The notes: generated by a model not told the origin, from the letters alone. 64,000 bases of DNA from an uncultured Thermococci archaeon (GCA_964500005.1 CAZCMP010000004.1:97816-161815), one strand, 5' to 3'; numbered from the stretch's first letter, positions 2,600-49,366 are shown. Made by a program: numbers and translations.

Positions 2600-4312
2600 T
2601 TAATCCACTATTAGATTAAACTCTACCCTGTCTGTGATTCCCCTTCTCGAATATGAAACTGCTTTTATCGGGTATGTTCCAGAAGGAGTTGTTGACGGAA
2701 CTGTTAAGGTTAGAGTGTATGTCCCAGTATTATGTCCCTTGATCTTCTGAGTTAGTGGTTCTATTGCAAATGTTACTCCTTGTGGCAATCCCTCTAATCT
2801 AACGCCTGCATCTATCTGAGTTAGGAAACCTTTGTTTTTTACTTGGACGATAAGGCTCTGTGTCCCCGGTACAATTTCTAGAGGAGAAACTACTTTCCCA
2901 CCAAAAATAACATCTGTTCCAGATGATGGTACTGTTAGTTGTACAATGTCTATGCCTGGGTAAAGTATTGAAGGCGGGAGGAGCTTCTTTTCCTCTTCAG
3001 TAATGCAATCATTAACGATCACAGTTACTGTTGCTGTGTTTGATGTTACCTCTCCATCTGTAAATGTATAGTCAAAGAAGTATGTTCCTGTTGTTTTGGG
3101 TGCACAGTATTTGATCTTGCCGTTAGATAATTCTGCTGTGCCTCCTGTTGGAGTTCCAATAAAATTGATCTGTGGTGATGCGCCCTTGTTAATATCATTA
3201 CTAAGGACGTCTATTGTAACACATGCTTCTTTGCAGACTTCTGCTGAGTCGGCATTTGCAATTGGTTGCTCACCGTTGTCATTTGAACAGATTATTCCTA
3301 TCACTACTTTGATAGTAATGGGGTCTGGTATATCCCCTCCGGCCCCAACTTTGTCTGCAAGAAATGTCAGCGTATCTGTTTGCCCACAGTATCCACTACA
3401 GTCTAGAATAGAATAGTCAATCTGGTTTCCTTGACCTGCAAAAACTGCTGTTCCGGGGTTTGGGTTAACAAGAAACATGCTCCCCTTATAGTTAGCTGTG
3501 GGATAACAAGTTCTGGCTGCTTCATTGACATTGATATAATCATATGTGGTGCTACCTACTATAATATCCCCAGTAGCGCAATTATAATCTACATAATAAG
3601 TACAATCTGGTATTGGCGGAGAATTACAAGTAACTGTTACATTAACTTGTACTGTCTTTCCTCCTGCAGTAAATGTAAAACTATCAGGTCCACTGTAACC
3701 TGAAACAGGGGTGTACCTAATCATTCTATTGCTAATTACAGATACGCTGCCATGAGATGGATTTGTATGGCTCTGATAATGATTATTATTAGCCGATATA
3801 CATGAGATTAAATCAAAATCGATGTTCTCATAACTGTCACAATTAACTGAAAAGCTATGGGTGCAATCTGCTCCTGGTGTTCCAGCTTGGATTGTTACTG
3901 TACTTGAAGAAGTTGCTACGCATGACGCCCTATCCCCGGGGGGTCCAGTAGATTCGGTAGCACTTCCAGTAAAATAGACTGTGCCTACTGACCCTGCCGT
4001 ATATATCCATGTAAAGTCCCTGTACTGGCCTACTGGTATGTCCTGGGTGCCAACAGGCGGACCCCCAGGAGGAGTAGCGGATCCAGTGTCTCCACTTGAT
4101 ACACTTATCGAGGGTTGGACACTAATCGCTGCGTTAGCTCCTGTGTTAGTGACTCTCATTGTCACAGTTATAGAATCCCCAATATCAACTGTTGAAGGAG
4201 TAGCGGATATTGATGCTGAAATAGTGGTATCTGGGGCCGCAAAAGCAAAACTAGAAAATACAGTTGAAATTAATACTAACATTACCATTATTGAGATTAT
4301 TTTATTTTTGAT
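2600..4312 (-). CDS. Secreted Ig-like/cadherin-like domain protein, paralog of 902-2419; likely non-AUG start at 4312/4315, first ATG at 4288
   Basis: Signal peptide; Big_9-like PIANADSAEVC...VLSND repeat; C-terminal ~110 aa clearly homologous to the neighbour. Confidence 0.75.
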   Translation of the reverse strand: MKNKIISIMVMLVLISTVFSSFAFAAPDTTISASISATPSTVDIGDSITVTMRVTNTGANAAISVQPSISVSSGDTGSATPPGGPPVGTQDIPVGQYRDFTWIYTAGSVGTVYFTGSATESTGPPGDRASCVATSSSTVTIQAGTPGADCTHSFSVNCDSYENIDFDLISCISANNNHYQSHTNPSHGSVSVISNRMIRYTPVSGYSGPDSFTFTAGGKTVQVNVTVTCNSPPIPDCTYYVDYNCATGDIIVGSTTYDYINVNEAARTCYPTANYKGSMFLVNPNPGTAVFAGQGNQIDYSILDCSGYCGQTDTLTFLADKVGAGGDIPDPITIKVVIGIICSNDNGEQPIANADSAEVCKEACVTIDVLSNDINKGASPQINFIGTPTGGTAELSNGKIKYCAPKTTGTYFFDYTFTDGEVTSNTATVTVIVNDCITEEEKKLLPPSILYPGIDIVQLTVPSSGTDVIFGGKVVSPLEIVPGTQSLIVQVKNKGFLTQIDAGVRLEGLPQGVTFAIEPLTQKIKGHNTGTYTLTLTVPSTTPSGTYPIKAVSYSRRGITDRVEFNLIVD

Positions 4313-4539
4313 AATAATCTACCTCCACTACTATTGGTTATCAATATTGTTAATAATAATTTTAAGTTTAAATGGTTTGCGGTTGTCGCAGTCTCTATCG
4401 TCAAACGACTTCAAAAATAAAAATCAGCCTCGAATCTAACCCGCAATAGATATAAAGCGTTTCGCCACTTTTCGTATCAAAGCACAGAAAAAGAATTGCG
4501 AGAAAAGACAAAACAGTTGAGATTTGGAGAGAGATTCTT

Positions 4540-4833
4540 TTGAGAGAGATAAGTGATGAGAAGCTTACAAAATATTTTGAGATAGCAGGAAAAGCCTTTG
4601 ATGATCTAAAGATAAATCCGCCTAAAGGCTCCCACATGGAAAAGGTCGCAAACGACTACCTTGATATGGCAAAAAGGTATTATGCAGATGCAAAGTATTT
4701 CAAAGAAAAAGGGGATTATGTCACGGCGTTTGCTTGCCTAAACTACCTGCATGGCTACCTTGATGCGGGGGCCAGGCTTGGGGTATTCAAGGTTTCAACA
4801 ACTGAGTACTTTGCTTTTGAGGAGGAGAGGTGA
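4540..4833 (+). CDS. DUF357 domain protein
   Basis: DYLDMAKRYYADAKYFKEKGDYVTAFACLNYLHGYLDAGARLG pattern. Confidence 0.85.
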   Translation: MREISDEKLTKYFEIAGKAFDDLKINPPKGSHMEKVANDYLDMAKRYYADAKYFKEKGDYVTAFACLNYLHGYLDAGARLGVFKVSTTEYFAFEEER

Positions 4834-4837
4834 TTAG

Positions 4838-5203
4838 TTGGATTACAAAGTTACGTTAGAAGTTCCAATTATTGTGAGGGATATAAAGACAGGCGAAGAT
4901 GCGATAAAGGTTGCGATGTCAAATGTTAATAAAAAGCTAAAAGCCGCTAAGCTTGATTATGTAAAGGTCGAGATTGGCATGTCGCAGTGCCCAAAATGTG
5001 GTGACTACTTTGAAAGCTCATTTTTTGTAGGCGATGTTTCCCTTGTGGGGATCTACCTTACACTGGACATATTTAACGCTGAAAACATAAAGCACGCAGA
5101 AAACATAGCAAAATCTGTCGTTGGAAAAGCGCTAAAGGACGTTCCTTTCAAGACGTTTGAGGTAAAGGAGCGGGTGGAAAAGGTCAGAAAGAAGCGTCGA
5201 TGA
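4838..5203 (+). CDS. DUF555 / UPF0212 family protein
   Basis: YKVTLEVPIIVRD...CPKCG...LVGIYLTLDIFNAE..HAENIAKSVVGKALKDVP; SD AGGTGAT before TTG. Confidence 0.8.
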   Translation: MDYKVTLEVPIIVRDIKTGEDAIKVAMSNVNKKLKAAKLDYVKVEIGMSQCPKCGDYFESSFFVGDVSLVGIYLTLDIFNAENIKHAENIAKSVVGKALKDVPFKTFEVKERVEKVRKKRR

Positions 5204-5849
5204 TGCCGGGATCTCCTATATCGTAATAGACTGATTCCCCCTCTTTTTTATAGGGGTGCCTCAGTAGCGTTGCTTTCCTCTTGTTGTTATTCTGCTCTTC
5301 CTTTTCAAGCTTAACGATCAGTTTGGACCAGTATTTTAGGACCTCCCCGCCGATGGGGACCTTCTCTTTGCTGCCAGAAACATCGTCGTAGACCTGGTTT
5401 GTGATCACTAAGGGTATGTTAAAATCTCTAGCAATCCGGGATAGAATCAATAGATCGTTACCAAGCTGCCTTGCTAGCTCCGTCCTCTTCTTGTGATCGT
5501 ATCCTTCTAGCCGGTACAGTGATACTAAAGAGTCAACACAAACAAAACCGATCCTTGTGCTCATTATCTTCTCAAGCTTTGCAACAGATTGCTGTTGGGT
5601 GGCATAGTCCCTTGGCTGGAAAACTATTATTTCCTCTAGGTTTTTTACACCCATAAGAGATAGCCTCTTTGGAGAAAATCCGCCTTCTGTGTCAATGAAG
5701 ACTGATTTTTTGTCTCGCAAGAGGGAGTACTTGCAACACATCAGGCATATCGTAGTCTTGCCTGTTGCATGCTCTCCATAAAACTGCGTTATGACCCCCT
5801 CTGGTATCCCGTCTATTAAAAGGTCCAAAGGGTTTCCGCCAAACTTTAT
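5184..5849 (-). CDS. radB: DNA repair and recombination protein RadB (start probably ATA 5849; ORF track uses GTG 5858)
   Basis: Walker A GEHATGKT, FIDTEGGFS, VDSLVSLYR, ITNQVY, GGEVLKYWSK. Confidence 0.9.
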   Translation of the reverse strand: MKFGGNPLDLLIDGIPEGVITQFYGEHATGKTTICLMCCKYSLLRDKKSVFIDTEGGFSPKRLSLMGVKNLEEIIVFQPRDYATQQQSVAKLEKIMSTRIGFVCVDSLVSLYRLEGYDHKKRTELARQLGNDLLILSRIARDFNIPLVITNQVYDDVSGSKEKVPIGGEVLKYWSKLIVKLEKEEQNNNKRKATLLRHPYKKEGESVYYDIGDPGIIDASF

Positions 5850-5936
5850 TTTAATCACCTTTAATACTACACCAATAAAACCTTAATTTATTTATAAAGT
5901 ATATTCCAACTCTCTGCTAAACAAACATAGAAAATC

Positions 5937-5946
5937 TTTTATATAG
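5937..5946 (+). promoter_or_regulatory. Archaeal TATA box of tRNA-Val
   Basis: aaaatctttttatatag about 25 nt upstream of the tRNA. Confidence 0.6.
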
Positions 5947-5966
5947 AGAGTCTAGTTTTGATTTAA

Positions 5967-6043: not shown

Positions 6044-6062
6044 TCTTTTTTAATGTGAATGT

Positions 6063-6731: not shown

Positions 6732-6755
6732 TTAAAATGTTTGATATAAAAAAAG

Positions 6756-6980
6756 CTACCTATAATATTCAAATTCTTCCTGTGTTAGCCCAGAATCTTT
6801 TATTATTCTCATTAATGTACCTTTCTTCAGTTCTTCGTGTAGTGGCACTGTAATCTTGATAAGTCCATTTTCACCTACTTTTTCAAGTCGGACATGTGAG
6901 CCTTTTTGCCTTACCACAATAAATCCTGCTCTCTTCAAAATTTTAATTACGTCCAAGCCAGAAAGAACAGCAGAGCTCAT
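6756..6980 (-). CDS. hicA: HicA family toxin
   Basis: GFIVVRQKGSHVRL...VPLHEELKKGTLMRIIK. Confidence 0.9.
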   Translation of the reverse strand: MSSAVLSGLDVIKILKRAGFIVVRQKGSHVRLEKVGENGLIKITVPLHEELKKGTLMRIIKDSGLTQEEFEYYR

Positions 6981-7177
6981 ATGGCCACTTCGAGCCTTTC
7001 TCCGGGATACTCCATAAGCTCATTTATGTCTGGCTCTAGGTAAAGCTCTATAGCTTCTCTTATATTATCCAAGGCTTCAGCTTTAGTTTCCCCTTGGGAG
7101 ATGCATCCCGGGAGTGAAGGAACATAAACAGTGAAACCTCCCTCCTCTTGGAGCTCCAAAACTACTGTTAGTTTCAT
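6977..7177 (-). CDS. hicB: HicB family antitoxin (short form)
   Basis: EEGGFTVYVPSLPGCISQGETKAEALDNIREAIELYLE; 4-nt overlap with hicA. Confidence 0.9.
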   Translation of the reverse strand: MKLTVVLELQEEGGFTVYVPSLPGCISQGETKAEALDNIREAIELYLEPDINELMEYPGERLEVAI

Positions 7178-7245
7178 ATAATCTAATTAATAATAAAGGA
7201 TATATAAAATTGATGCATAGGTAAGCTAGAACGCCTAGAAAAATC

Positions 7246-7368
7246 AATAAGAAAAGAAAAAAATAAATTTATTCTTTGTCTTTGTTTCCGAGCCCGAACT
7301 TCTTCATGATCCAGTCCATTGGGAGCGATTTCTTTGTTTCACAAACGACGTCAAGGTTGGCAAGGTAG
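7246..7368. repeat. Dispersed direct repeat, copy 1 of 2 (other copy from 16058)
   Basis: 33 nt identical (7246-7278 = 16058-16090), then about 90 nt of high similarity. Confidence 0.9.
7269..7367 (-). pseudogene. 3' remnant (32 codons) of a beta-propeller surface-protein paralog
   Basis: Translates to YLANLDVVCETKKSLPMDWIMKKFGLGNKDKE*, nearly identical to the C-terminus of 16081-17172. Confidence 0.85.
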
Positions 7369-8483
7369 TGCAAGTGGATGGACTAAGTGGGGAGCAGTAC
7401 AACGTTTTCATACCCAATCCACTTCCCCCAAAGATAGAATTTGATGATGATCTCGTGCTCGTTTTGTCAAAGGCGGAAGAGAAACTTGGTAAACTATCCG
7501 GAGTAGGCCTTACCCTTCCAAGCCCCAATCTCCTTATTGTGCCTTATCTAAGAAAAGAGGCTATAATGAGCACCAGGATAGAGGGGACAAGGATCTCCCT
7601 GCAAGAAGTGTTGCTGTCTGAAGCAAAAGAGAAGGAAGAGAAAACAAAAGATGCACAAGAGGTCATAAATTACATAAACACTGTTAATTATGCCCTAACT
7701 AAAATCGAAAATTCCCCCATCAATCTGGATCTGATAAAGGGCATGCATAAGGTTTTAATGGAAGATGTTAGGGGAAATGAAAAGGCGCCTGGAGAATTTA
7801 GGGAAGTCCAGAACTGGATTGGGTCTGAATTTTCCAAGGTTTCAGACGCCATTTTTGTCCCTCCAAATCCAGAAGCTGTCCCTAAATTAATGGAAGATCT
7901 AATCGATTATCTTAACACAGAGCATAATGTTCCGGTTCTTGTCAGGTGCGCATTGATGCATTACCAGTTTGAAACCGTCCATCCCTTCTGTGACGGTAAT
8001 GGCAGGATAGGGAGAAGCCTGATAACGGTCTACCTATGCAAGAAAAAGAAGATAATAAAACCCCTTTTGTACATCAGTGAGTTTTTTGAAAAGCACAGAA
8101 TGGAATACAATGAACTCTTTTTGAGGACCGGCCAAACAGGTAAATTTGAGAGCTGGATTAAGTTTTTCTTGAAAGCTATTGAAGTCCAATCCGAGGACGC
8201 ATTGTTAAGGGCGCATAAACTTTTGGAGCTAAGGGAAGCTTACAGAAAGAGGGTCCAGAGCGAAGCGCAGTCTAGTGACATTCTAAACATAATCGATTAC
8301 TTGTTTTCAAATCCGTTTATTACGGTCAAGAAGGCCCAACTGATCACAGGTGTTACATATCCAACGGCGAAGAAGTATATGGAAAAATTAGCTAAATATG
8401 AAATCTTAAAAGAAACAAAGCGCCTGCAAAGAGAAAAAACATTTGTGGCCCACGAGATTTACGAGATAATCAAGGATATCTAA
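7368..8483 (+). CDS. Fic family protein (class II with C-terminal wHTH), possibly 5'-truncated
   Basis: Fic motif HPFCDGNGRIGR; inhibitory helix STRIEG; FIPNPLPP N-terminus. Confidence 0.9.
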   Translation: MQVDGLSGEQYNVFIPNPLPPKIEFDDDLVLVLSKAEEKLGKLSGVGLTLPSPNLLIVPYLRKEAIMSTRIEGTRISLQEVLLSEAKEKEEKTKDAQEVINYINTVNYALTKIENSPINLDLIKGMHKVLMEDVRGNEKAPGEFREVQNWIGSEFSKVSDAIFVPPNPEAVPKLMEDLIDYLNTEHNVPVLVRCALMHYQFETVHPFCDGNGRIGRSLITVYLCKKKKIIKPLLYISEFFEKHRMEYNELFLRTGQTGKFESWIKFFLKAIEVQSEDALLRAHKLLELREAYRKRVQSEAQSSDILNIIDYLFSNPFITVKKAQLITGVTYPTAKKYMEKLAKYEILKETKRLQREKTFVAHEIYEIIKDI

Positions 8484-8520
8484 AGCTCATAGAGGATAAA
8501 AATAAAAAAATATGGATTTA

Positions 8521-9408
8521 TTAAATCCATTGTTCAACTAAGTCTCTGTTGTTGTCTACCCACTCTCTGGCTATTTCTGCTGGATCTCTGCCTTTGTCAC
8601 TGTATTCGAGTATCCATTCGCTCTGTGTGTCTTCTGTTACCTGAAACTTCTCAAAGAATGCATAAGCTTCTGGAAAGTCATCTTTGAATCCCTTTCTAAC
8701 AATGGTATATACGACATCTCCGTCACCATATACCTTTTGTGGATCATCGAGCTTTTGTATGTCAAATCTTGCAAACGCAGAATGTGGTTCCCATATTGTA
8801 AATACTATCCATTCGTCATTTAATGTCGCTGCATCTACTTCGGCAATCATTGCTGGAGTGCTACTTGCTTTAAGTGTGTATCCATTTAGGCCATAAGCAT
8901 CTATTGCTTTGCCTGTATTGATCATTATTCCTGCGCCTGGTTCGATTCCAACTATTCTTCCTTTAAACTCTGTTTCTTTTCCAATCAAGTCTGTTATGGA
9001 TGTCACACCGCTATCGTATACATATGTTGGGACGGCAAGCCCCAGCCAAGTTCCAGGAACATTTATATTAACCAATTCAAGATTATTTTGATGAATATTC
9101 CAGTATTCTTGATGAGTTGCAGGTAGCCATCCAGCCAATAAAGCATCGATATTGCCTTCTGCCATTTCAGCATAGACTATTCCTGCATCTAGTTGATTTG
9201 TCTCAACTTTGTAACCCATATCTTCTAGTATTACCTTGGCAACTTCTGTTTTTACAGTTACTCCAGGCCAAGGCGGAAGTCCAAAACTTATTGTTCCTTT
9301 GTCTGTCTTTGTTTCTTCAACTTGCCCGGTACAGCCTGTATTTAGCACAACTAAAGATACTAAAATTATTGTGCCTATACAAATTAGATTTTTTTTAGAA
9401 TTTATCAC
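8521..9408 (-). CDS. proX: Glycine betaine ABC transporter substrate-binding lipoprotein
   Basis: Lipobox LNTGC; WLPATH, GIEPGAG, WEPHSAF; GGAGGTGA SD before GTG 9408. Confidence 0.9.
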   Translation of the reverse strand: MINSKKNLICIGTIILVSLVVLNTGCTGQVEETKTDKGTISFGLPPWPGVTVKTEVAKVILEDMGYKVETNQLDAGIVYAEMAEGNIDALLAGWLPATHQEYWNIHQNNLELVNINVPGTWLGLAVPTYVYDSGVTSITDLIGKETEFKGRIVGIEPGAGIMINTGKAIDAYGLNGYTLKASSTPAMIAEVDAATLNDEWIVFTIWEPHSAFARFDIQKLDDPQKVYGDGDVVYTIVRKGFKDDFPEAYAFFEKFQVTEDTQSEWILEYSDKGRDPAEIAREWVDNNRDLVEQWI

Positions 9409-9522
9409 TAATTTCACCTCCAAATTTAGCGATTAATAATAAAAAAATTTTAACCATATAAAAGGTTAATGGATTATTATAAGAGCAAAACTTTTTTAAC
9501 TTAATTTAAAATATTAATAGTA

Positions 9523-9942
9523 ATGTCTAGAAAAATTACATATAGTGTTAAGAAAAATGTGCCTATCACAGAATTAAACTATACAATTCACAAGTTAGAA
9601 GGGCAAGTAAGACTCTTACAGAGGTTGTATTTTATTAGATTTTTATACAAGGGCATGGGAGTAGAAGATGCCTCAGAACTTATCGGAATTACCAAGAATA
9701 CTGGTTATCATTGGCTTAAAAAGTGGAATGAAAGCGGGCAGGAGCAGTTGATACCTAATTTCAGAGGGGGTCGACATCCTAAAATTAGTAAATCTGATAA
9801 GGACGAGTTAAGGGGGATAATAAGGGACCTAGGATTAAACAAGGCTAGAGATGTCCAAAAATTGATTCAAGAAAAATATAACATTACATATTCTTTATGG
9901 CAAGTTAGAAGAATATTAAATTCATTTGAGAAAAATGAATAA
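9523..9942 (+). mobile_element. IS630-family transposase OrfA-like HTH protein; no DDE domain present
   Basis: RLYFIRFLYKG..VEDASELIGITKNTGYHWLKKWNESG...FRGGRHPK..IQEKYNITYSLWQVRRIL, like methanogen IS630 N-terminal domains. Confidence 0.75.
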
Positions 9943-9946
9943 AAAA

Positions 9947-10792
9947 TTAGTTTTTCTTTGTATCGTAGATTTTTCCAAGTTGTTTTGTTATCCTATCTAG
10001 TATAATTGCCAAAAACACAATAGACAGTCCCGCTTCTATGGAATCTACCAAATTGTACCGTTGTAGTCCCGATATAATGACTTCTCCGAGCCCTCCTGCT
10101 CCAATAAATCCTGCTATTACAACCATAGAAAAGGCTAACATTATAGTCTGATTTATCCCCATCATAATGGAAGGCAGTGCAAGAGGAACCTCTATTTTAA
10201 GAAGTAGTTGGCGAGATGTCGCCCCAAATGCTTTTCCAACTTCAATCATTTCCTTAGAAACATGCTCAAGACCTAAACTTGTTAATCTTATAGCCGGTGG
10301 CATTGAAAATATGACTGTGGCAATAACCCCTGGAACGACGCCTATTCTAAAAAATAGTACTGCCGGTATGAGGTATGATAAGGATGGAAGTGTTTGCATC
10401 AAATCAAGTATTGGTTCTATTATTGTAGCAAAAGTTTTTGATCTCGCTTTCAATATTCCTAAGGGCACCCCGATAAAAAGTGCAATAATTGTAGCCACCA
10501 AAACTAAAGACAGTGTTTCTAGTGTGGCGTTCCATAAATCCATGCTAATAATCAGGACCAAACTAATAAAGGCAAATATTGCCACTTTGATCTTTGCCGT
10601 TTTCCAGGATATTAGCGCAAATATTGCAATTAGCACTATTGGCGGTATAAAGACGAGGGCTGAATAAAAGAACTCAACAACTGCGGATATTATTGACCTT
10701 ATTATCTCGAAAATAATTGAGAAATTTTCTCTCAAGAAGTTAATAATACTAACTATTGGCTCCCCTATTGGTATTTGTGGAATCTCAATTAT
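9947..10792 (-). CDS. proW: Glycine betaine ABC transporter permease (start probably ATA 10792; ORF track uses GTG 10801)
   Basis: PILDLMQTLPSLSYLIP, EAA-like EVGKAFGA, PSIMMGINQTIMLAFSMVVIA. Confidence 0.92.
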   Translation of the reverse strand: MIEIPQIPIGEPIVSIINFLRENFSIIFEIIRSIISAVVEFFYSALVFIPPIVLIAIFALISWKTAKIKVAIFAFISLVLIISMDLWNATLETLSLVLVATIIALFIGVPLGILKARSKTFATIIEPILDLMQTLPSLSYLIPAVLFFRIGVVPGVIATVIFSMPPAIRLTSLGLEHVSKEMIEVGKAFGATSRQLLLKIEVPLALPSIMMGINQTIMLAFSMVVIAGFIGAGGLGEVIISGLQRYNLVDSIEAGLSIVFLAIILDRITKQLGKIYDTKKN

Positions 10793-11978
10793 GTGAATCA
10801 CCCCTTAGAATATCTATTGCAGCCTTCTCATTTGCATGCCCCAAAAGAACCCCTTCTTCGTCAACAACAGGTATGGTCGTTTTAGAGGTAATTAACAAGG
10901 GCAAAGCTTGTGCAAGAGTGACAACACTTTCTACAGAATTACATTTTTTGATGAATTTTTCAACTCTTACATTTTTTCCAGACTTTTCCGCCTCTAGTTC
11001 GGATAAAAAAATAATCCCCAAAAGTTTTTGGGCTTCGTCTACAACGAAAGAGTAAGTTACCCTATTCTTTTTTAATTTATTTATTGCGTCTACTGCCTTA
11101 ATATCCGGGGTAAGTACCACCCTATTTTGTTTTGTTATATAATCAACTTTTATTACATGATGTCTATCAACATTTTGCACAAATGTTTTAACAAACTCTG
11201 TTGCAGGATTAACTAGAATATTCTCAACTGTATCAATCTGGACAAGGACCCCTTCTTCGTTTAAAATTGCAACTCTGTTGCCCAGTTTTACTGCTTCGTT
11301 TAGATCGTGAGTTATAAAGATTATAGTTTTTTTCATCTTTCTTTGAATTCTTAATAATTCCTCTTGCATATTATCTCTTATCAAAGGATCTAATGCGCTA
11401 AAAGGTTCATCCATTAGAAGAATATCCGGGTCAATAGCTAAGGCTCTAGCAAGCCCAACTCGCTGCTTCATTCCCCCACTAAGTTCATCGGGCATGCTAT
11501 TTTCCCAACCTGCAAGCCCTACTGTTTTTAATATTTTCTTACCGGTATTCTCCATATTCTCTTTAGGAACTCCTTGGATTTCAAGGCCCAAAACAACATT
11601 ATCGAGAATAGATCTGTGTGGTAGGAGGCCAAATCTCTGAAAAACCATTCCAAATTTCTTTCGCCTCAATTCAATCAATTCATTTTGATTAAGATTTAGA
11701 ATGTTTATTTTTTCGTTTCCAATTAGTACTTCACCCTTTGTAGGGAGTATCAAACGATTAATACATCTTATAAGTGTTGATTTGCCACTCCCTGAAAGGC
11801 CCATTATGACAAATATTTCTCCTTTATTGATTTCAAGATTTATATCTCTTAAGGCAACAACTTGCCCTGTTTTCTCTTTTATTTGGTTTCTAGTTAAACC
11901 CTTCTCAATCAACGGAAAAGCTTTCTCTGGGTTTTTACCAAATATCATATATAAATTGCTAATTTTTACATCCAACAT
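10785..11978 (-). CDS. proV: Glycine betaine ABC transporter ATPase with CBS domains
   Basis: GLSGSGKS, LSGGMKQR, LLMDEPFSALDP, FITHD, C-terminal CBS pair. Confidence 0.95.
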   Translation of the reverse strand: MLDVKISNLYMIFGKNPEKAFPLIEKGLTRNQIKEKTGQVVALRDINLEINKGEIFVIMGLSGSGKSTLIRCINRLILPTKGEVLIGNEKINILNLNQNELIELRRKKFGMVFQRFGLLPHRSILDNVVLGLEIQGVPKENMENTGKKILKTVGLAGWENSMPDELSGGMKQRVGLARALAIDPDILLMDEPFSALDPLIRDNMQEELLRIQRKMKKTIIFITHDLNEAVKLGNRVAILNEEGVLVQIDTVENILVNPATEFVKTFVQNVDRHHVIKVDYITKQNRVVLTPDIKAVDAINKLKKNRVTYSFVVDEAQKLLGIIFLSELEAEKSGKNVRVEKFIKKCNSVESVVTLAQALPLLITSKTTIPVVDEEGVLLGHANEKAAIDILRGDSHN

Positions 11979-12222
11979 TTTATCGCCAAAAAATCAAAAT
12001 ATTATTAGTATTCAATAATAAAAAAATTTAGGGAGCCTTTAAATAAGTTTCGATTTTTGACTTACAATGATTATTAATTTTAATTTTTATAAATTAAATA
12101 TTATCTATTGATATATTATATGAAAATAATATTATAAATTTAAATATATTGTATATATGAAAAAATTTAGCAACGTCCGTAATTTATTTATATTGATATG
12201 TAATCAATGGGCTGGTGATTAT

Positions 12223-12528
12223 ATGGGATTTGTACAGGAATTTATGGATTTTTTAAAAGAGTACAAAGTTATAGGGCTTGCTGTAGCATTTATTATGGCG
12301 ACAGCCTCTACAACGCTTGTTAAATCTTTTGTAGACGATATTGTTATGCCCATCGTCTCACCCTTCATACCTGGTGGGGATTGGCAGACGGCCGTTATCA
12401 ACATTGGCCCAATCGCAATTAAAGCGGGCTCTTTCTTAGCACAGATTATCAACTTTGTCATATTGGCGATTGTGGTCTTTGTAATTGCAAAGAAGGTCTT
12501 GAAGGAAGAAAAGGTAGCAAAGAAGTAA
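12223..12528 (+). CDS. mscL: Large-conductance mechanosensitive channel
   Basis: EFMDFLKEYKVIGLAVAFIMA..VKSFVDDIVMP..GSFLAQIINFVI; SD GGTGAT before ATG 12223. Confidence 0.9.
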   Translation: MGFVQEFMDFLKEYKVIGLAVAFIMATASTTLVKSFVDDIVMPIVSPFIPGGDWQTAVINIGPIAIKAGSFLAQIINFVILAIVVFVIAKKVLKEEKVAKK

Positions 12529-12680
12529 TTCTCTAATTTATTTAATTTATTAAAAATATTTCACTTTTTTTAATACAAGCAAATCAAATTTTATCTATTA
12601 TAAATTCGCAAAAGACTTTTATAGAACTAATTATTAATAAAGAAAAAGTCGTAGTTAATTCAATTACTTGAAATGATAAA

Positions 12681-16178: not shown

Positions 16179-17172
16179 TGTCCCAGTTGCCGTTTCTTTC
16201 GTCACGCCAAACTACCCGATTGCAATATATCTTTGGATCCTCTTGTTTAAATGGGTATGTAGATATATCGAAAAATTCTCCAGCCCTTATATTGTAGCCT
16301 CTGATGTTCCATTTATCCTCGCCAACAGGATCTTCTTGCCAGACGACTATGTCACCGTATATTGCTGGCTTGTATCGTATAACTGAATCATCCGGGGGTA
16401 TATCAAAATAAACTCCAGTCCTTAGGTTCTTGCCTCTGACGTTCCATTCCTCGACGTCATTAGGATCTTGTCGCCAGACGACTATGTCACCGTATATGGC
16501 TGGTTCCTCTTCTTTAAATTGGCCTGTAGCTATATCGTAATAGACTCCAGTCCTTATATTGTAGCCTCTGATGTCCCATTTCTGATCGTCATCAGGCCAT
16601 TCCTGCCAGACGACTATGTCACCGTATATTTTTGGACGCTCTTGATTAAATGGATCTGTAGCTATATCGTAATAAACTCCAGTCCTTATATTGTAGCCTC
16701 TAATATTCCAGTCTCCCCCGCCATCTGGATCTTCTTGCCAGACGACTATGTCACCGTATATTGCCGGCCAGTATCGTCTAACTGGAGGATCACCTGAAGG
16801 TATATCAAAAGGTATATCAAAATAAGCTCCTGTCCTTAGGTTCTTGCCTCTGACGTTCCATTCCTGCTTGTCATCAGGATCTTGTCGCCAGACTACTATG
16901 TCGCCGTATATGGATGGTTCCTCTTCTTTAAATGTTTCTGTAGCTATATCGTAATAAACTCCAGTCCTTATATTGTAGCCTCTGATGTTCCATTTGTTGG
17001 CGTCAGACTCTTCTTGCCAGACGACTATGTCACCGTATATTGCCGGATTTACAATCGAATAATCCGAATCTGTTATCCTCTGTTCGCTCAAGACCCTTGT
17101 CCCCATAACTGCTGAAACAGTGGCAAATGCCAAGACAAAAATAATTAATAATGATTTTAGATATTTTTTCAT
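16081..17172 (-). CDS. Secreted beta-propeller repeat (TolB-like/methanogen surface) protein
   Basis: Signal peptide MKKYLKSLLIIFVLAFATVSA; about 7 PAIYGDIVVW blades; final WRDERNGNWDIY. Confidence 0.88.
   Translation of the reverse strand: MKKYLKSLLIIFVLAFATVSAVMGTRVLSEQRITDSDYSIVNPAIYGDIVVWQEESDANKWNIRGYNIRTGVYYDIATETFKEEEPSIYGDIVVWRQDPDDKQEWNVRGKNLRTGAYFDIPFDIPSGDPPVRRYWPAIYGDIVVWQEDPDGGGDWNIRGYNIRTGVYYDIATDPFNQERPKIYGDIVVWQEWPDDDQKWDIRGYNIRTGVYYDIATGQFKEEEPAIYGDIVVWRQDPNDVEEWNVRGKNLRTGVYFDIPPDDSVIRYKPAIYGDIVVWQEDPVGEDKWNIRGYNIRAGEFFDISTYPFKQEDPKIYCNRVVWRDERNGNWDIYLANLDVVCETAKKSLPMNWIMKKFGLGNKE
16342..17040. repeat. Six intragenic copies of gac(g/t)actatgtc(a/g)ccgtatat, spaced 129-150 nt (propeller blades)
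   Basis: Copies at about 16342, 16477, 16609, 16741, 16891 and 17020; all spacings are multiples of 3. Confidence 0.9.
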
Positions 17173-24835: not shown

Positions 24836-25583
24836 ATCTTTTTTCAAAGAAATCCTTATCGACAACTAAGACTCTTTTGTCTGTGATAATATCATCGATG
24901 TACCCCTTCCAGTATACAACAATGCCCGGACCAAAGAGAGAGATATAATGCTTTAACTGTTTGTTATAGTCCTGCTTAAACTCTATGTAGTCACAGAAAC
25001 TAGCCTTGCTCTCAAACCAAAATACTTTTCTGCCCCGTATTTTGATTGGTTTTTTTAGGAGGAAATCTGGGGTCTTGCCTGAACCTAATTTTCTTAAATC
25101 ATCTTCTCGTAGGAAATGAATCTCTTTTTTATCAAGATACTCCTTTAGCATCTCTTCCCCATTTTTACCGTTCTCTCTTTGAATCTTAGAAGATTCCGGA
25201 GAGTATGCTATGTCCACCTCGATTGCCTTTTTGATTTCATTTTTAATTCTTTCATCTTCAATTGATTCAGGGTTAATTAGAATACTTCTGATATCCTTCT
25301 TGTTGTAGCCTTTTTCCTTTAGGATCATAGTTGAGATTAATATGGCTGAAAAGGATAGTTTAGAGGATATATCAAAAAAAGTGAGGCCTTTGTCCCATAG
25401 TCTCACAAGCTCTTGGACTCTATTCATTATGGGGTAATAGTCCTTTTTGACATTTCTAACGGTCTTTTGGGACAGTATCGAAAGTAGAATGTCCTCTTCA
25501 ATCCCATATTTTTTAGATAGCTCAGGGACATCGTCTCTTGTTTTTATGGATTTGTATATTTCCATGAACACTTGTTTTCTCAT
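24813..25583 (-). CDS. TPD-motif (CDIN1/C15orf41-like) putative nuclease
   Basis: KTPDFLL...WFESKASF...QLKHYISLFGPGIVVYWKG. Confidence 0.8.
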   Translation of the reverse strand: MRKQVFMEIYKSIKTRDDVPELSKKYGIEEDILLSILSQKTVRNVKKDYYPIMNRVQELVRLWDKGLTFFDISSKLSFSAILISTMILKEKGYNKKDIRSILINPESIEDERIKNEIKKAIEVDIAYSPESSKIQRENGKNGEEMLKEYLDKKEIHFLREDDLRKLGSGKTPDFLLKKPIKIRGRKVFWFESKASFCDYIEFKQDYNKQLKHYISLFGPGIVVYWKGYIDDIITDKRVLVVDKDFFEKRFTSFEYL

Positions 25584-25643
25584 CTGAACACTTTATTGCA
25601 AGATGTAGGAACGCTTTTAAATATTTTCTATACTTTGATGATT

Positions 25644-26882
25644 ATGGATAATAAAGAGTTCTATGAATTCAAGAAGCAGCTTAAATTCCTGTCAAAAATA
25701 AGGGGGAGGCATACGGAACTTGTTTCTGTTTACATACCGGCAGGATATGAAATTTCAAAGGTAGCTGCACAGATTAAAGATGAGCAGGGGACCGCGACAA
25801 ACATTAAATCAAAAGGGACTAGAAAGAACGTTCTCTCTGCACTAGAAAGGGTGATGCAACATTTGCGGTTGTATAAATTGACACCGCCTAACGGGCTCAT
25901 CATCTTTTCAGGCAACATCTCAGAGGATGAAGGCAATCCAAAGATAGAACTCTTTACACTTAATCCTCCTGAGCCAATATCTGTCAGGATTTACAGGTGC
26001 GACCAGCAGTTCGTTCTTGACCCACTTCTTGAAATGATTGAGGACAAGAGGGTCTTTGGCCTAATTATTGTTGAGAGAGGGGAAGCCAGTATAGGCCTTC
26101 TAAGGGGTAAGAAGGTAGAATTACTTAAACATTTGACATCAAGAGTTCCAGGAAAGTTCAGGGCTGGAGGTCAGTCTTCGGTCAGGTTTGCACGATTAAG
26201 AGAAATTGCTGCTGATGATTTCAAGGATACAGTTGGTAAAACTGCAAATGAAATCTTCCTTGCACAGGTAAATCTAGAAGGCATTCTAATTGGTGGAGGG
26301 GGTTATACCAAATATGAATTTGAAGAAGGAGAGTACTTACACCACGAACTTAGGAAGAAAATATTGGGGGTTGTGGACACCGCTTATACAGAGCTCTTTG
26401 GATTGAACGAACTTGTGGACAAGGGTTCAAAAATCCTAGAAAATCTAGATATCACAAAGGAGAAAGATATTGTAACAAGATTCCTTAAGGAATTAATAAA
26501 AGATGACAGCCTTGCAGCTTATGGGGAAAAGGAAGTCAGGAAATATTTAGACGCTGGCGCCGTAGAACTACTGCTTTTATCAGAGGGATTAAATAAAAAC
26601 AGGGTTAAGATAAAATGCTCATCATGTGGTAACCAGACAGAAAAGACAACTACAGATGACGATTTATTCAAATTAGAACAGGAGATTTCTAGCATCCAGT
26701 GCGAAAATTGTGGAAATTTAAGTTTAAACCTTGAAGAAAAAATAGATCTTCTAGAAGAGTTGGCAGATCTGGCTCAAGAAGGTAGCACCAACGTAGAAGT
26801 AATCTCTACAGAAACAGAAGAAGGTAACCAGCTATTAAAGGCATTCGGCGGTATTGCTGCAATTATCAGATACAGGCTCTAG
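25644..26882 (+). CDS. prf1: Peptide chain release factor aRF1
   Basis: TELVSVYIP, NIKS, YRCDQQF, GGQS; Zn-ribbon insert in the C domain. Confidence 0.97.
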   Translation: MDNKEFYEFKKQLKFLSKIRGRHTELVSVYIPAGYEISKVAAQIKDEQGTATNIKSKGTRKNVLSALERVMQHLRLYKLTPPNGLIIFSGNISEDEGNPKIELFTLNPPEPISVRIYRCDQQFVLDPLLEMIEDKRVFGLIIVERGEASIGLLRGKKVELLKHLTSRVPGKFRAGGQSSVRFARLREIAADDFKDTVGKTANEIFLAQVNLEGILIGGGGYTKYEFEEGEYLHHELRKKILGVVDTAYTELFGLNELVDKGSKILENLDITKEKDIVTRFLKELIKDDSLAAYGEKEVRKYLDAGAVELLLLSEGLNKNRVKIKCSSCGNQTEKTTTDDDLFKLEQEISSIQCENCGNLSLNLEEKIDLLEELADLAQEGSTNVEVISTETEEGNQLLKAFGGIAAIIRYRL

Positions 26883-43399: not shown

Positions 43400-43407
43400 C
43401 AAAACAC

Positions 43408-45460: not shown

Positions 45461-45461
45461 A

Positions 45462-46640
45462 TTATTGTTTCTTTAGAAGTTCTATAAAGTCACTTCCGTT
45501 GATTAGGCCAAATCTACCTTTCTTTCCTTCTTTTTCAGTGTAAAAAGATGTTTTATCCTTCTTAATTTTTTTTGAGAATACTGCAAATGGCACTGGGTCT
45601 GACACATGTGTCCTTATTTTAATAGGTGTTGGGTGGTCAGCCACTATGCTTATATTGTAATCAAATCCTTTGCCATCTAGTTTATTCAAAAGCCTTCCAA
45701 CAACTCTTTTGTCAAGATCTTCAATTGCTTTGATCTTCATCTCAAGGTTCCCAGAATGACCTGCTTCATCAGGCGCTTCTACATGAATATAAATGAAGTC
45801 AATGTCCTCTAGAGCTTTTACAGCGTAATCTGCCTTTCCTTCGTAGTTTGTATCAATGAATCCTGTTGCTCCTGGAACATTGATGACCTTCATTTTTGCT
45901 CCGTATCCTATCCCTTTTATCAAATCAACAGCAGAGATTACTCCTCCCTTCATCCCAAACTTCTCAAAGAATGGCTCCATTGGGACTTTTCTCCCTTGTC
46001 CCCATAACCATATCATGTTTCCAGGATTTTTACCTTCAGAGATTCTTTTTTTATTGACAGGATGATCCATTAGCACTTTCTTTGAATCGAGCATCATCTT
46101 ATTCAATATCTCTGAATTTTTGCCTTTGATGAGGTTATCAGATACCTTTTGCCCAACTACATCGTGTGGCGGTGTACAGGAAAAACTATTCTCTCCGTTG
46201 TATACAAATAGATGCCTATAGCTTACCCCACGATAGAATTTCCCTATGTCAAATGATTCAGAAACTTTTTGTATGAGTTCTGCTGATTCCGGTGTGGTAA
46301 TGTGGCCTGAAGAATAATCCTTTATAATACCCTTTTCTTCAGTTATGATGTTGCATCTAAATGCGATATCGCCTTCTGCTAGGTCAACACCAATACTGTA
46401 GGCCTCTAAAGGTCCTCTGCCAGTATAATATTTTTTGGGATCATACCCTAAGATAGAAAGGTTTGCAACATCAGATCCAGCTTCAAATCCATCGGGCACT
46501 GTTTTCAACTCGCCCATGGCACCTTCCTTGGCAATCATGTTTATGTTTGGGATATTGGAAAGCTCAAGAACTGTTTTGTTCCCCTTATCCTCTAATGGAT
46601 AGTCAGCCATTCCGTCTCCACATACCACTATGTATTTCAT
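45462..46640 (-). CDS. apgM: Cofactor-independent phosphoglycerate mutase (archaeal)
   Basis: GDGMAD, GSDVANL, EAPDEAGH, ADHPTP..TH. Confidence 0.95.
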   Translation of the reverse strand: MKYIVVCGDGMADYPLEDKGNKTVLELSNIPNINMIAKEGAMGELKTVPDGFEAGSDVANLSILGYDPKKYYTGRGPLEAYSIGVDLAEGDIAFRCNIITEEKGIIKDYSSGHITTPESAELIQKVSESFDIGKFYRGVSYRHLFVYNGENSFSCTPPHDVVGQKVSDNLIKGKNSEILNKMMLDSKKVLMDHPVNKKRISEGKNPGNMIWLWGQGRKVPMEPFFEKFGMKGGVISAVDLIKGIGYGAKMKVINVPGATGFIDTNYEGKADYAVKALEDIDFIYIHVEAPDEAGHSGNLEMKIKAIEDLDKRVVGRLLNKLDGKGFDYNISIVADHPTPIKIRTHVSDPVPFAVFSKKIKKDKTSFYTEKEGKKGRFGLINGSDFIELLKKQ

Positions 46641-46672
46641 GTCACAAATGAATATAGATTGTTTAAAAGGTT

Positions 46673-47755
46673 TTAGAAATTTCTAAGATATGCTTTTAGA
46701 AAAATAGGTAAAAATGCAAATACTTTAGGATCTTTTAATAATGAAAGAATAGTCTTGGAATGCTCGTCAAAACTTCCATGTTGGGCAAGTATTTGTTTTT
46801 TTGATTTTATAAAATCAAATATACTGCCAAGCTCTTTGTCTGTCAGATTCTCATATGTTTTTCTAAAGAGTAATCCCCTAGATATCTCCTTCCCAAATAA
46901 TTCTTTACACATTAGAGGGTAATCATTGTATTTTCCATGGATTATTGAATTAGCAAGAGCCTCTGAAGCCAAAGCACCGTAATAGACGCCTCCACCTGAC
47001 AAAGGCTTTACCTGGCATGCCGCATCGCCCAAAAGAAAGACTCTATCTCTATAGATATCCCCTTTGCCTATCGGGATTACCCCCGCTTGGGCTTCAATCG
47101 TTTTTCCTTTGATGCCTTTTTCCTTCAAGAACATCTCAAGGGATTGTTTAGGGTTTTCTGAAACTGTCCCTATCCTAAATATTCCATCGCCCTCAGGTAT
47201 TACCCATGTGAAGAATGGTTTTTTGATGTGGACTTCAACAAAATTATCTAAATCAAGATTCGCTTTAGTTCTAATCTGATACCCTTTATAGTGCTTTATA
47301 TTGAATTGAAACTCTTGGGACCTAACTCTAGATGATGGGCCATCTGCCCCTATGAGTAAATCGGTGCCAAATTTTCTCTTGTTTGTTTTTATTATGATAT
47401 TATTCTTTGTTCTATCGAAAGAATCAAATCTTTCAGACAAGGAAACTTCAAGCCCTCTTGAAAGGGATTTGTCAAATGAGGCCCTGTCGACAACAAATGA
47501 TACCCCCTTTCTTTTTAGTTCAAAAGATTCATTCCCTAAAAATACCTTTGCACCGTCAATCCTATTTTTAATTGAATCCTTAAAGTCAAATTCTTTGAAA
47601 TGATCAAAAAAATCCCTGCCTATAAGCCCTGAGCATGAAACAGGGTTGCCTATGGAGCTATGTTCTTCAATAATTTTGACTTTATATCCGCCTTTAGTTA
47701 GGTACTGGGAAGCTAAAAGTCCTGCTGGGCCGGCACCGATTACAGTTATTTCCAC
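46673..47755 (-). CDS. Geranylgeranyl reductase family FAD oxidoreductase
   Basis: GAGPAG, CSG, GADG, WVIPEG, GDAACQVKPLSGGG. Confidence 0.88.
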   Translation of the reverse strand: MEITVIGAGPAGLLASQYLTKGGYKVKIIEEHSSIGNPVSCSGLIGRDFFDHFKEFDFKDSIKNRIDGAKVFLGNESFELKRKGVSFVVDRASFDKSLSRGLEVSLSERFDSFDRTKNNIIIKTNKRKFGTDLLIGADGPSSRVRSQEFQFNIKHYKGYQIRTKANLDLDNFVEVHIKKPFFTWVIPEGDGIFRIGTVSENPKQSLEMFLKEKGIKGKTIEAQAGVIPIGKGDIYRDRVFLLGDAACQVKPLSGGGVYYGALASEALANSIIHGKYNDYPLMCKELFGKEISRGLLFRKTYENLTDKELGSIFDFIKSKKQILAQHGSFDEHSKTILSLLKDPKVFAFLPIFLKAYLRNF

Positions 47756-47824
47756 AAAAAGAGATGAATTTACTACTTTATAAATAGTTACTAATATTTC
47801 TATAAAAGAAAAATAAAATTTAAA

Positions 47825-48178
47825 TTAAACTTTAGTCCATTTTAACTCAGACATCTTTGAAGAGTCTGAATTCTTTACTTTTGCAGAGAAGTAGTAACTT
47901 GTAGGACAAATATTACATGCCTCACAAACTGCATTTCCAGACTCCACTTTCTTGACTTCAGAAAGCTCTATTTTGTAAACATTGCTATAGTATGCAATTA
48001 TGAGTTCACTATCTGTTGGCTCTTTGATAAACTGAATATTTCCTTCAGCATACCACTTTTCCCAAGGTGTCTCTTCGCACTGCATAGGCTGAAACTTCAT
48101 CGTTATTGGCGCATTACTTGTACATCCTAAGGAGAGAATTAACAACAACAAAGGGATAGCTAATAGGAACTTCTTCAT
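47825..48178 (-). CDS. Hypothetical lipoprotein
   Basis: Lipobox LSLGC; CEACNIC motif. Confidence 0.75.
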   Translation of the reverse strand: MKKFLLAIPLLLLILSLGCTSNAPITMKFQPMQCEETPWEKWYAEGNIQFIKEPTDSELIIAYYSNVYKIELSEVKKVESGNAVCEACNICPTSYYFSAKVKNSDSSKMSELKWTKV

Positions 48179-48251
48179 ATATTCACCAGAATAAATAGGG
48201 TCGATTTAATATTTAAATGATTCGGAGTAAAAAAGAGAAAATATAAAAAAA

Positions 48252-49211
48252 TTAATTTTTCCTCTTGTATAGCATTGCTCCCAGTGCTACTGCTATTATT
48301 AAGAATACTGCAGTCAAACCCTGGAATATTACCAATTGATTTGAAATTGAGGATATCTCTGATTTGAGCTCGGAAATTTCTTTTGATTCAGTTTGAATCT
48401 CCTTAATTGAGCTAAATATCTGGTCTGCATTGTATTGAATCATTTCTGCTATTGTATCTGTTCCGGGGATAGCTTCTGGGAAATTTGAGAAAACAACATG
48501 TCTTCCTCCAATCTCTTCAGCCATTTGAGCGCCGAGGGTAGTTCCACTCTGAAGATTATCTATAACAAATGATACGCCGTCTTCCTTTCCTTTTACAACA
48601 AGGTTCTGGACAGTCTGTACAGATAGTGTTTCAGGCGGCTGGTATGCTTCAACTACCTGAAGACCAATCCATTCTGAAAAAGGTTTCTGCCATGCCATCA
48701 CAATTGCTTTGTAATCTGAGATTCCAAGCTCATTTGCCTCAGCCAATATTTTCTCATTTAACTCGTCTAGCTCTTTTGAAACATCGGCAGCATTTTTTTC
48801 ATAGTAAGATTTGTTCTTTGGATCAATTTCAATCAACGCATCCTTAATTGAATTGATCTTTGCTTTGGCAAGAGGTGGTGTTCCCCACGGCCCTTGAAGC
48901 AAGAGTTTTTTTACATCCTTATTTTCAGAAGCACTTACCATATTATCAAGCCAAGGCTCAACTCCATGGTATACTACAAGTGATGCGGTATTTATTTCAG
49001 ATACTACGCTAGGCCTTACATCAAAATGATCAGGGCATATACCTGGCTGTACCAAAGAGATGGCATCTACTTTATCCCCGCCGACTTCTTCTACAAAATA
49101 TTTCATCGTAGTTGTGGTGCAGATTACTTTTATTTTTTCTGCAGAGGAGAATGTAGGCATTGAGGATAAAACCAGTGCTAAAATAAAAACGGATACTATT
49201 ATTTTCTTTAT
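48252..49211 (-). CDS. ZnuA/TroA-like solute-binding protein with C-terminal anchor; likely ATA start at 49211 (first ATG 49160)
   Basis: KVICTTT...EEVGGDKV...PDHFDVRP..A.LVVYHG; LIEIDP.N..YY.N; C-terminal TM + KRKN. Confidence 0.8.
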   Translation of the reverse strand: MKKIIVSVFILALVLSSMPTFSSAEKIKVICTTTTMKYFVEEVGGDKVDAISLVQPGICPDHFDVRPSVVSEINTASLVVYHGVEPWLDNMVSASENKDVKKLLLQGPWGTPPLAKAKINSIKDALIEIDPKNKSYYEKNAADVSKELDELNEKILAEANELGISDYKAIVMAWQKPFSEWIGLQVVEAYQPPETLSVQTVQNLVVKGKEDGVSFVIDNLQSGTTLGAQMAEEIGGRHVVFSNFPEAIPGTDTIAEMIQYNADQIFSSIKEIQTESKEISELKSEISSISNQLVIFQGLTAVFLIIAVALGAMLYKRKN

Positions 49212-49366
49212 AATAATCCCTCCTAGTGATACGAATTTAATATTCGTGCTACTAATAAACTTTAGATATTATTTATAAAGGTTTTGGTTTTTAGGTAATT
49301 TCAATAGTAAGAATGTACTAAGTAAATTATATAAGCAAGTTACTATAAATTAGGGTGGTGATTTAC

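Follow-up and report, generated by a model that had tools for sequence, protein, structure and literature searches.

Conserved ATA, ATT and ATC codons behind strong Shine-Dalgarno sequences as probable start codons in Candidatus Methanofastidiosum

Introduction

Which codons can begin a protein in archaea? A review of archaeal translation initiation lists AUG, GUG and UUG only (PMC7531240). The question is raised anew by a 64,000-nucleotide stretch of DNA from an uncultured archaeon (CAZCMP010000004.1:97816-161815, assembly GCA_964500005.1; hereafter the window, with positions counted from its first letter). Here four unrelated genes, coding for an Ig-like protein, RadB, the permease ProW and a ZnuA-like protein, have ATA or ATC at the point where the Shine-Dalgarno (SD) sequence or the signal peptide demands a start codon. 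The original prediction for this DNA was that such codons, collectively ATH (ATA/ATT/ATC), are used systematically, and the sites at 4312, 5849, 10792 and 49211 do read as it described. So do its two canonical references, GTGAT-aact-ATG at 17172 and GTGAT-ttac-ATG at 49367, and the same layout with ATA recurs in radB (AGGTGAT-taaa-ATA) and proW (GGGGTGAT-tcac-ATA).

Our answer, which rests throughout on computational sequence comparison, is that AUA, AUU and AUC, and occasionally CUG, are quite probably real start codons in a minority of genes in this genus. As we read the alignments, at least two intact, conserved genes must begin at an ATH codon behind a strong SD, with no usable ATG, GTG or TTG.

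The window has a GC content of 37%, and the region around radB matches ten Candidatus Methanofastidiosum metagenome-assembled genomes (MAGs) with 84-90% amino-acid identity and a conserved gene order. Judged by sequence, the source is a Candidatus Methanofastidiosum archaeon (class Methanofastidiosia, formerly WSA2/Arc I; methanogen-related). For comparison we fetched related loci, L001-L038, selected for containing radB, znuA, proW or the Big_9 gene that encodes the Ig-like protein. All four ATH-start genes of the window lie on its minus strand, and their products match Pfam Big_9, Rad51, BPD_transp_1 and ZnuA; the BPD_transp_1 permease (ProW) adjoins an ABC ATPase with CBS domains (ProV).

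The start of radB

The elements of radB are as follows.

5184-5849, minus strand: radB (RadB/Rad51-family ATPase), coding sequence from ATA 5849-5847 to the stop, assigned by Pfam Rad51, the orthologue codon, the outgroup Met1 and the ratio of nonsynonymous to synonymous substitution rates (dN/dS)
5854-5860, minus strand: radB SD, AGGTGAT, followed by the 4-nucleotide (nt) spacer taaa (5853-5850), conserved among orthologues
5891-5898, minus strand: TATA-box-like TTTATAAA upstream of radB, conserved in position and, from that position, a putative promoter element

The product has the Rad51/RecA core of a RadB (Pfam Rad51, E=6e-26, residues 4-219), with the Walker A motif GEHATGKTT at about residues 27-35, near a short N-terminus, and its database homologues are named RadB. 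In each of the 14 radB loci compared, AAGGTGAT-N3/4 is followed by ATA or ATT; the SD of L010 reads GGTGGT. The TATA-like element is also present in all orthologues, either as TTTATAAA itself or slightly altered (TTTATAAG in L002 and L003, TTTTAAAT in L008).

A conventional explanation would have these genes start at ordinary codons, radB and proW at the GTG within their SDs, the Ig-like and ZnuA-like genes at a downstream ATG, leaving the ATH as an isoleucine codon or as leader. In the window, GTG 5858-5856 of radB and GTG 10801 of proW are indeed in frame, each within the SD, and Prodigal-type database entries start at them (VIKIKFGG... and VIHIIE...). For radB, however, the relatives contradict it. 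The spacer is 4 nt in the window, L031 and the P0002 group, which puts the SD GTG in frame, but 3 nt in the remaining orthologues, where the GTG is out of frame. In six loci (L001, L003, L005, L006, L008 and L034) the codon right before the ATA is TAA or TAG, and no relative has an in-frame canonical start upstream. The first canonical start downstream is codon 36-37 in L007-L010, already past the Walker A motif.

Across codons 2-12 of radB, the first, second and third codon positions hold 3, 2 and 10 variable sites, a distribution typical of translated sequence. Outgroup Methanofastidiosia RadB proteins (45-51% identity) begin MKTGCALFD, MDIGCRPID or MEIGCKSLD, and their Met1 aligns with the ATA codon of (I)KFGGNPLD.... 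The dN/dS of the gene is about 0.04. Because SD and codon conservation, frame, stops, coding signal and outgroup Met1 all agree, we consider it certain, on this comparative evidence, that radB starts at ATA or ATT throughout the genus.

The start of the ZnuA-like gene

The second case is a gene for a secreted solute-binding protein.

48252-49211, minus strand: ZnuA-family solute-binding protein, coding sequence from ATA 49211-49209, with signal peptide (M)KKIIVSVFILALVLSSMPTFSSA; assigned by Pfam ZnuA and an 11-sequence alignment
49212-49224, minus strand: znuA SD AGGAGG (49224-49219) plus spacer gattatt; the orthologues read GGAGGCGAT-N4-ATH

The protein combines a ZnuA domain (Pfam ZnuA, E=2e-35, residues 29-265) with an export signal, as befits the ZnuA/TroA type; read from the sequence, its N-terminus has KK, a hydrophobic core and SSA|E. 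All ten metagenomic orthologues (79-94% identity) have GGAGGCGAT-N4-ATH-AAR-AAA, and over the 11 sequences including the window the SD takes the form GGAGG(C)GAT-N4-ATH. The window's spacer holds two more in-frame ATT codons (49217 and 49214), but ATH is invariant over the 11 sequences solely at the position matching 49211, where five have ATA, four ATC and two ATT; ATG, GTG and TTG do not occur there.

The first canonical start in the window is ATG 49160 (codon 18). It lies within the signal peptide, which a start there would truncate, and is replaced by ACA in L017. The codons ahead of this ATG behave as translated sequence, with variation dominated by third positions (10, 3 and 17 by codon position), and dN/dS is 0.05-0.08. 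We regard it as certain, from these comparisons, that the ZnuA-like gene starts at an ATH codon. For this gene and for radB, the conventional explanation is already refuted at the level of the genus.

In most of the genomes compared (among the window and L013-L024) the znuA start region has two or three tandem in-frame ATH codons, such as ATT ATT ATA or ATT ATC ATA. Tandem weak start codons, here and in the ATT ATT ATC of the Ig-like gene, may make initiation in the right frame likelier; as far as the sequence tells, any codon of such a run could be the one used.

Between a TATA-like box (49269-49280) and the znuA SD lies a palindrome, ACGAAT-N5-ATTCGT (49231-49247, minus strand). Its arms are kept in the znuA orthologues, with one base different in L019, and its 5-nt centre is variable. 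Probably a dimeric metal-responsive repressor uses this palindrome as its operator to control the ZnuA-like gene, and perhaps the divergent gene at 49367 as well.

proW and the Ig-like gene

Aligned with sister genomes, radB and znuA keep ATH in 14/14 and 11/11 sequences, and the ATH codons of proW and the Ig-like gene fall opposite an ATG of sister species.

9947-10792, minus strand: proW (glycine betaine/proline ABC permease), coding sequence from ATA 10792-10790, with GTG 10801 as alternative start; assigned by orthologue alignment and dN/dS
10797-10804, minus strand: proW SD GGGGTGAT, spacer tcac, within the 3' end of proV (proV stop 10787-10785)
2600-4312, minus strand: Big_9 Ig-domain secreted protein from ATC 4312-4310, with ATG 4288 as alternative start; assigned by alignment with the homologue ATG
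4321-4326, minus strand: SD of the Ig-like gene, GGAGGT by SD match, followed by agattatt, before the ATT-ATT-ATC run

The proW gene of L034 (91% identity) reads GGGGTGATccac-ATA, and it shares GGGGTGAT-N4-ATA ATT GAR with the window. In L031-L033 (84% identity) the same codon and SD geometry appear as AGGTGAg-caaa-ATG ATT GAA, and more distant ProW orthologues begin MIDIPQIP. Because the sister-species ATG and the MIDIPQIP starts align there, the ATA is the positional homologue of the ancestral ATG. The in-frame GTG is also found within the SD of the ATG-starting orthologue, and neither this GTG nor that of radB has an SD of its own; each belongs to the SD. The dN/dS of proW is 0.065. We consider ATA its probable start. 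Ribosomes that reinitiate after the overlapping proV stop could use the ATA or the GTG. We had at first judged the proW start not supported, when the ATG ATT GAT ATT of L007 appeared aligned with the window's GTG; further orthologues align the ATG with the ATA.

In the Ig-like gene, the ATC has a properly spaced 6-nt SD and is directly preceded by an in-frame TAG; downstream, ATG first occurs at 4288. Six homologues (L009 and L034-L038) have ATG AAA AAT/AGT AAA where the window has ATC AAA AAT AAA, and the KNKIISI codons differ from those of L036 by synonymous changes only.

Several observations weigh against ATH initiation. The window's own radB has an in-frame GTG, so that use of GTG at the level of the strain is compatible with the sequence, and GTG 10801 is an alternative, less probable start for proW. 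The ATG at codon 9 of the Ig-like gene (4288) is common to the window and its nearest relative, L001, and missing in the other homologues; L001 has AAA at the ancestral start position and a stop two codons upstream. Because that ancestral position is lost, L001 must start at the codon-9 ATG or at an adjacent ATT or ATA. That no functional full-length product can come from ATG, GTG or TTG holds for radB and znuA, but not strictly for the window's own radB, for proW or for the Ig-like gene. ATH frequencies taken from the related loci are biased, since these loci were fetched via the ATH genes themselves. Finally, the lack of ATG at the ATH sites is not significant alone, the probability of seeing no G being about 0.09-0.3 (about 0.09 for 20 independent lineages). 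G makes up 11% of fourfold-degenerate third positions, and with G so rare there, selection against ATG at the ATH sites is not demonstrable.

Whether the Ig-like gene starts at the ATC rather than at the downstream ATG is, on this alignment evidence, about even. Our first view, from a paralogue and the L009 alignment, had taken the ATC as the start; it was downgraded because the codon-9 ATG is shared with L001 and the upstream start of L001 is lost. Thus the four proposed starts have fared differently, with those of radB and the ZnuA-like gene upheld by their comparative series, that of proW probable and that of the Ig-like gene evenly poised.

Shine-Dalgarno geometry and chance

Could an ATH codon stand behind an SD by accident? 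Of all ATH triplets in the window, 0.24% are preceded, at an aligned spacing of 3-5, by an SD match of at least 6 nt. The regions from the upstream stop to the first canonical start of 69 open reading frames contain 96 ATH codons, for which 0.23 hits are expected and 2 are observed; two more ATH hits sit behind the in-SD GTGs. The 631 non-ATH codons of the same regions give a single hit, an AAA beside a real ATG.

An SD of at least 6 nt precedes 4/4 ATH sites and 11/68 canonical starts (each scored at its best), and the spacing matches that of canonical sites, with GGTGAT-N3/4-ATG or TTG at 4838, 12223, 49367 and 17172. Taken alone, this SD statistic is modest and suggestive; it is the comparative evidence from sequence that shows the pattern not to be chance. 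An SD-anchored codon census over all loci, which served to find extra cases and not frequencies, ranked ATH third among the codon classes at SD+3-5 in these loci chosen through the ATH genes.

Artefact or decay, whether assembly or consensus error, a pseudogene, A-to-I editing or reassignment of AUA to Met, has only the bare absence of ATG from the window sequence to recommend it, and we consider its probability negligible. In all, 11-14 assemblies, made independently from different samples, have ATH at the codon in question, and with more than ten of them in agreement the consensus-error explanation fails. Frames are intact, and pairwise dS for radB, znuA and proW is 1.2-1.8 except in the closest proW pair, where it is 0.74; because dN/dS is 0.04-0.08, a sign of strong purifying selection, these genes are not pseudogenes. 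Editing, which the original prediction had offered for ATA, falls because ATT and ATC replace ATA at the orthologous codon, beyond rescue by A editing or AUA reassignment. Inside genes, ATA behaves as isoleucine: no other Ile codon is as common (ATA makes up 4.2% of codons), and it swaps with ATT and ATC.

Other start codons in the window and its relatives

Three genes with GTG or TTG starts serve for comparison.

4838-5203, plus strand: DUF555 gene, TTG start behind GAGGTGAT-N3, with an 8-nt SD; TTG in all genomes examined
8521-9408, minus strand: proX (OpuAC), GTG start behind GGAGGTGA-N5, with an 8-nt SD
56556-57065, plus strand: ECF transporter S component (ECF-S), TTG start; orthologue starts vary

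Both 8-nt SDs of the window thus belong to non-ATG starts, one GTG (proX) and one TTG (DUF555). The proX start is GTG in the window, L007 and L034 and TTG in L031. The ECF-S gene starts with ATG in L019 and L020, and in L014 (L014:3688) and L015 (L015:894), both on the minus strand, it reads GGTGAT-tcg-CTG. Upstream of the CTG the frame is closed by a stop, and canonical starts are missing until codon 51. The SD of these genes is GGTGAT, whereas that of the ATG and TTG orthologues is GGTG.

Further candidates come from Big_9 genes. A 1037-amino-acid Big_9 lipoprotein gene at L008:15148 (plus strand) has GGAGGT-N6-ATA before the lipoprotein signal peptide NKRYISIVLFIFLCLNTLNFVLGC, with no canonical start within the 40 codons displayed. 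In the Big_9 gene of L034 (about 15413, plus strand), an ATT aligns with the ATG of the L011 homologue, or the start is possibly an ACG two codons later; the NCBI start for this gene is a GTG that truncates the signal peptide. The claim that ATH initiation is systematic can be kept for the 64-kb window and its syntenic relatives, with two to four of about 65 genes plus three sister-genome cases, and for that scope only.

Start type is otherwise very stable across species. ATG is kept in about 30 genes, TTG in 12/12 DUF555 and all FtsY orthologues, and GTG in the orthologues of the gene for a FAD-dependent oxidoreductase (46673-47755). GTG and TTG starts are frequent in the window, at 4838 (plus), 9408 (minus), 18318 (minus), 21178 (minus), 47755 (minus) and 57062 (plus), and one replaces the other across species at proX and in the gene that ends at 21178.

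Annotation of the ATH-start genes

Gene callers were predicted to mask ATH starts, and the databases bear this out. At least nine N-termini are on record for RadB of this genus, in proteins of 154, 183, 185, 200, 207-211, 222, 224 and 236 amino acids; Walker A is missing from the 183- and 185-residue forms, which begin MCCKYS..., and from the 154-residue form. ProW is listed with 284 amino acids (GTG start, VIHIIE...) or 281.

We compared the radB annotations of L010/P0004, L031:1-747, L034:13217, L036:7878, L037:1949 and L038:7770. Five different starts are publicly annotated, including downstream ATGs at codon 12 or 37. NCBI calls the correct ATA in two MAGs (L037 and L038); its other starts are an ATA within the TATA box (L010/P0004), an ATG upstream of the promoter (L031, 249 amino acids) and a downstream ATG (L034, 208 amino acids). 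The 185-residue call in L036 comes from a JGI metagenome record, not from NCBI. We considered taking the PGAP calls of ATA as independent evidence and rejected this, since NCBI annotation is inconsistent: besides the ATA in the TATA box of P0004, the proX gene of L031 is annotated at an ATA one codon past an in-frame TTG.

In consequence, the public RadB set of the genus spans 154-249 amino acids, with several forms lacking Walker A. Calling ATG, GTG and TTG only would strip signal peptides or first transmembrane helices from ZnuA-like, Big_9 and ECF-S proteins, as seen directly in the Big_9 gene of L034, and metabolic and secretome inferences on the uncultured Methanofastidiosum lineage are affected.

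A model for initiation and its alternatives

How might these codons be read? AUA, AUU, AUC and CUG are each one mismatch from AUG. The geometry of the ATH sites matches that of a Pyrococcus abyssi model mRNA (aEF1A), GGAGGUGAU-N4-AUG. The proposal for that system is that, once the SD has paired, triplets in the P site are tried out by the initiator tRNA, and complexes at codons other than AUG are destabilised by aIF1 (PMC6237735). We hypothesize that a long SD duplex (6-9 nt of GGAGGUGAU) would fix the 30S subunit with the codon 3-4 nt past ...GAU in the P site, where Met-tRNAi would pair with two of the three bases of an ATH codon. Initiation would be slow, the protein would begin with Met, and output would be set low, with the length of SD pairing compensating for the weak codon. 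The choice of start is specific to each gene and kept over evolution. In radB and znuA an ATH start has lasted through the divergence of the genus, its third base changing freely between A, T and C; proW probably went from ATG to ATA within the genus, and secreted Big_9 genes appear to switch sporadically.

Among the causes proposed at the outset, deliberate down-tuning, in which the weak start codon sets a low translation rate, is the best-fitting, though not demonstrated. It fits because start type is kept gene by gene although synonymous sites are near or past saturation, and because the ATH, CTG, GTG and TTG starts carry the longest SDs.

A lineage-wide relaxation of stringency, caused for example by changes in aIF1, in the initiator tRNA or in P-site rRNA, would instead make near-cognate codons efficient and ATH nearly neutral. 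The variety of near-cognate types in a small sample (GTG, TTG, CTG, ATA, ATT, ATC and possibly ACG) suggests as much, as do several independent changes from ATG to ATH at different depths (genus-wide in radB and znuA, within the genus in proW, sporadic in Big_9) and the free drift of the ATH third base. Yet gene-wise conservation of start type at saturated synonymous sites, such as ATG in about 30 genes and TTG in DUF555, is unexpected if the codon is neutral, and the pairing of weak codons with the longest SDs suggests that they need help. We therefore find relaxation unlikely, and the conventional explanation, with its in-SD GTGs and the ATG that L001 shares with the window, equally so. As to the factors themselves, tblastn with two unverified aIF1/SUI1 queries against the window and 313 kb of loci found none, which is a weak negative, and ARAGORN on the window and 22 loci returned only tRNA-Val, tRNA-His and tRNA-Pro, with no initiator tRNA.

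Initiation without Met-tRNAi is also conceivable, either with an elongator tRNA-Ile in the P site, giving an N-terminal Ile, or for proW by termination-reinitiation. The allowed set of ATA, ATT and ATC is exactly the isoleucine box, and the proW ATA stands 5 nt ahead of the proV stop codon. But the same set comprises equally exactly the third-position near-cognates of AUG; starts at CUG, and possibly ACG, are not Ile codons; and aIF1 of P. abyssi discriminates against elongator tRNA (PMC6237735). Coupling by termination-reinitiation is excluded for radB and znuA because each lies directly downstream of its own TATA-like element. This explanation strikes us as very improbable.

The ATH sites invite a wider conjecture. 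The genus, and possibly SD-using AT-rich archaea more widely, might run a lowered start stringency, with several percent of genes starting at AUA, AUU, AUC, CUG or ACG behind extended SDs; we put this forward tentatively, as doubtful rather than expected. If true, the archaeal start repertoire would be wider than AUG, GUG and UUG, the starts of such genes would be systematically wrong in current archaeal catalogues, and the genus would offer a natural setting in which to study how proofreading of the aIF1/eIF1 type is tuned.

Comparison with known systems

In Escherichia coli, infC and pcnB have AUU starts that attenuate expression, infC is autoregulated through IF3, and about 0.1% of genes, two to four in a genome, begin in this way. 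The resemblance is that an AUH codon at normal SD spacing is the sole route to the full protein, persists in related species and presumably limits expression. The differences are that E. coli proofreads with IF3, whereas the archaeal factors are aIF1, aIF1A and aIF2, that two to four of about 65 genes are involved here, and that no autoregulatory logic like that of infC is evident for radB, znuA or proW.

Eukaryotic initiation at near-cognate codons (CUG, ACG, AUU) depends on eIF1 stringency, scanning and Kozak context, and aIF1 is the homologue of eIF1. The factor family and the one-mismatch class of codons are the same, but here SD/anti-SD pairing, not scanning in a Kozak context, places the codon.

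The best mechanistic analogue is Staphylococcus aureus, in which conserved AUU and AUA starts always come with an extended SD and give about 10% of AUG output (PMC13009471). Its sites, four per genome, are cvfC1 (AUU), ccpN (AUA), citZ (AUA) and infC (AUA), mapped by Ribo-Ret and luciferase (PMC13009471). Shared features are conservation of AUU/AUA across species, a long SD, a fixed short spacing and omission by gene callers. Unlike the experimentally mapped sites of that bacterium, those described here come from comparative genomics of an uncultured archaeon, seem more frequent and also include AUC and CUG.

Among archaea, our literature search for conserved AUH starts gave none beyond one anecdote, a proposed ATT start for the Asgard tubulin AtubA (PMC13394414), and on start codons of Methanofastidiosa and archaeal AUU/AUA starts it found nothing directly relevant. 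As with AtubA, a deposited archaeal protein is truncated and an upstream ATT at a plausible distance from the ribosome-binding site restores the conserved N-terminus; AtubA is a single gene in a single genome, whereas here the same codon recurs over 11-14 genomes and in unrelated genes. The phenomenon is of a kind known from bacteria. What is new is the archaeal setting, the recurrence in two to four of about 65 genes and three nearby, and the persistence across a genus whose synonymous sites are saturated. The sites are natural SD-plus-near-cognate substrates for probing how aIF1 and aIF2 handle non-AUG codons, and they allow a test of whether a long SD compensates for weak codon-anticodon pairing in archaea as in S. 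aureus.

Neighbouring genes

The block around proW (about 6750-12530) contains a HicA toxin (6756-7019), a Fic-domain protein (7251-8483), proX, a helix-turn-helix protein, proW, proV and MscL. Its proVWX part is confined to some Methanofastidiosum genomes (L007, L031 and L034) and is absent between Ogg and MscL/rubrerythrin in L001, L004, L006 and L008-L010; the HicA and Fic genes have no orthologue among the fetched loci. Elsewhere in the window, the gene for the archaeal release factor aRF1 (eRF1 domains 1-3) lies at 25521-26882 (plus strand), and its start is a TTG-ATG-ATT-ATG cluster about 41-44 codons inside the open frame.

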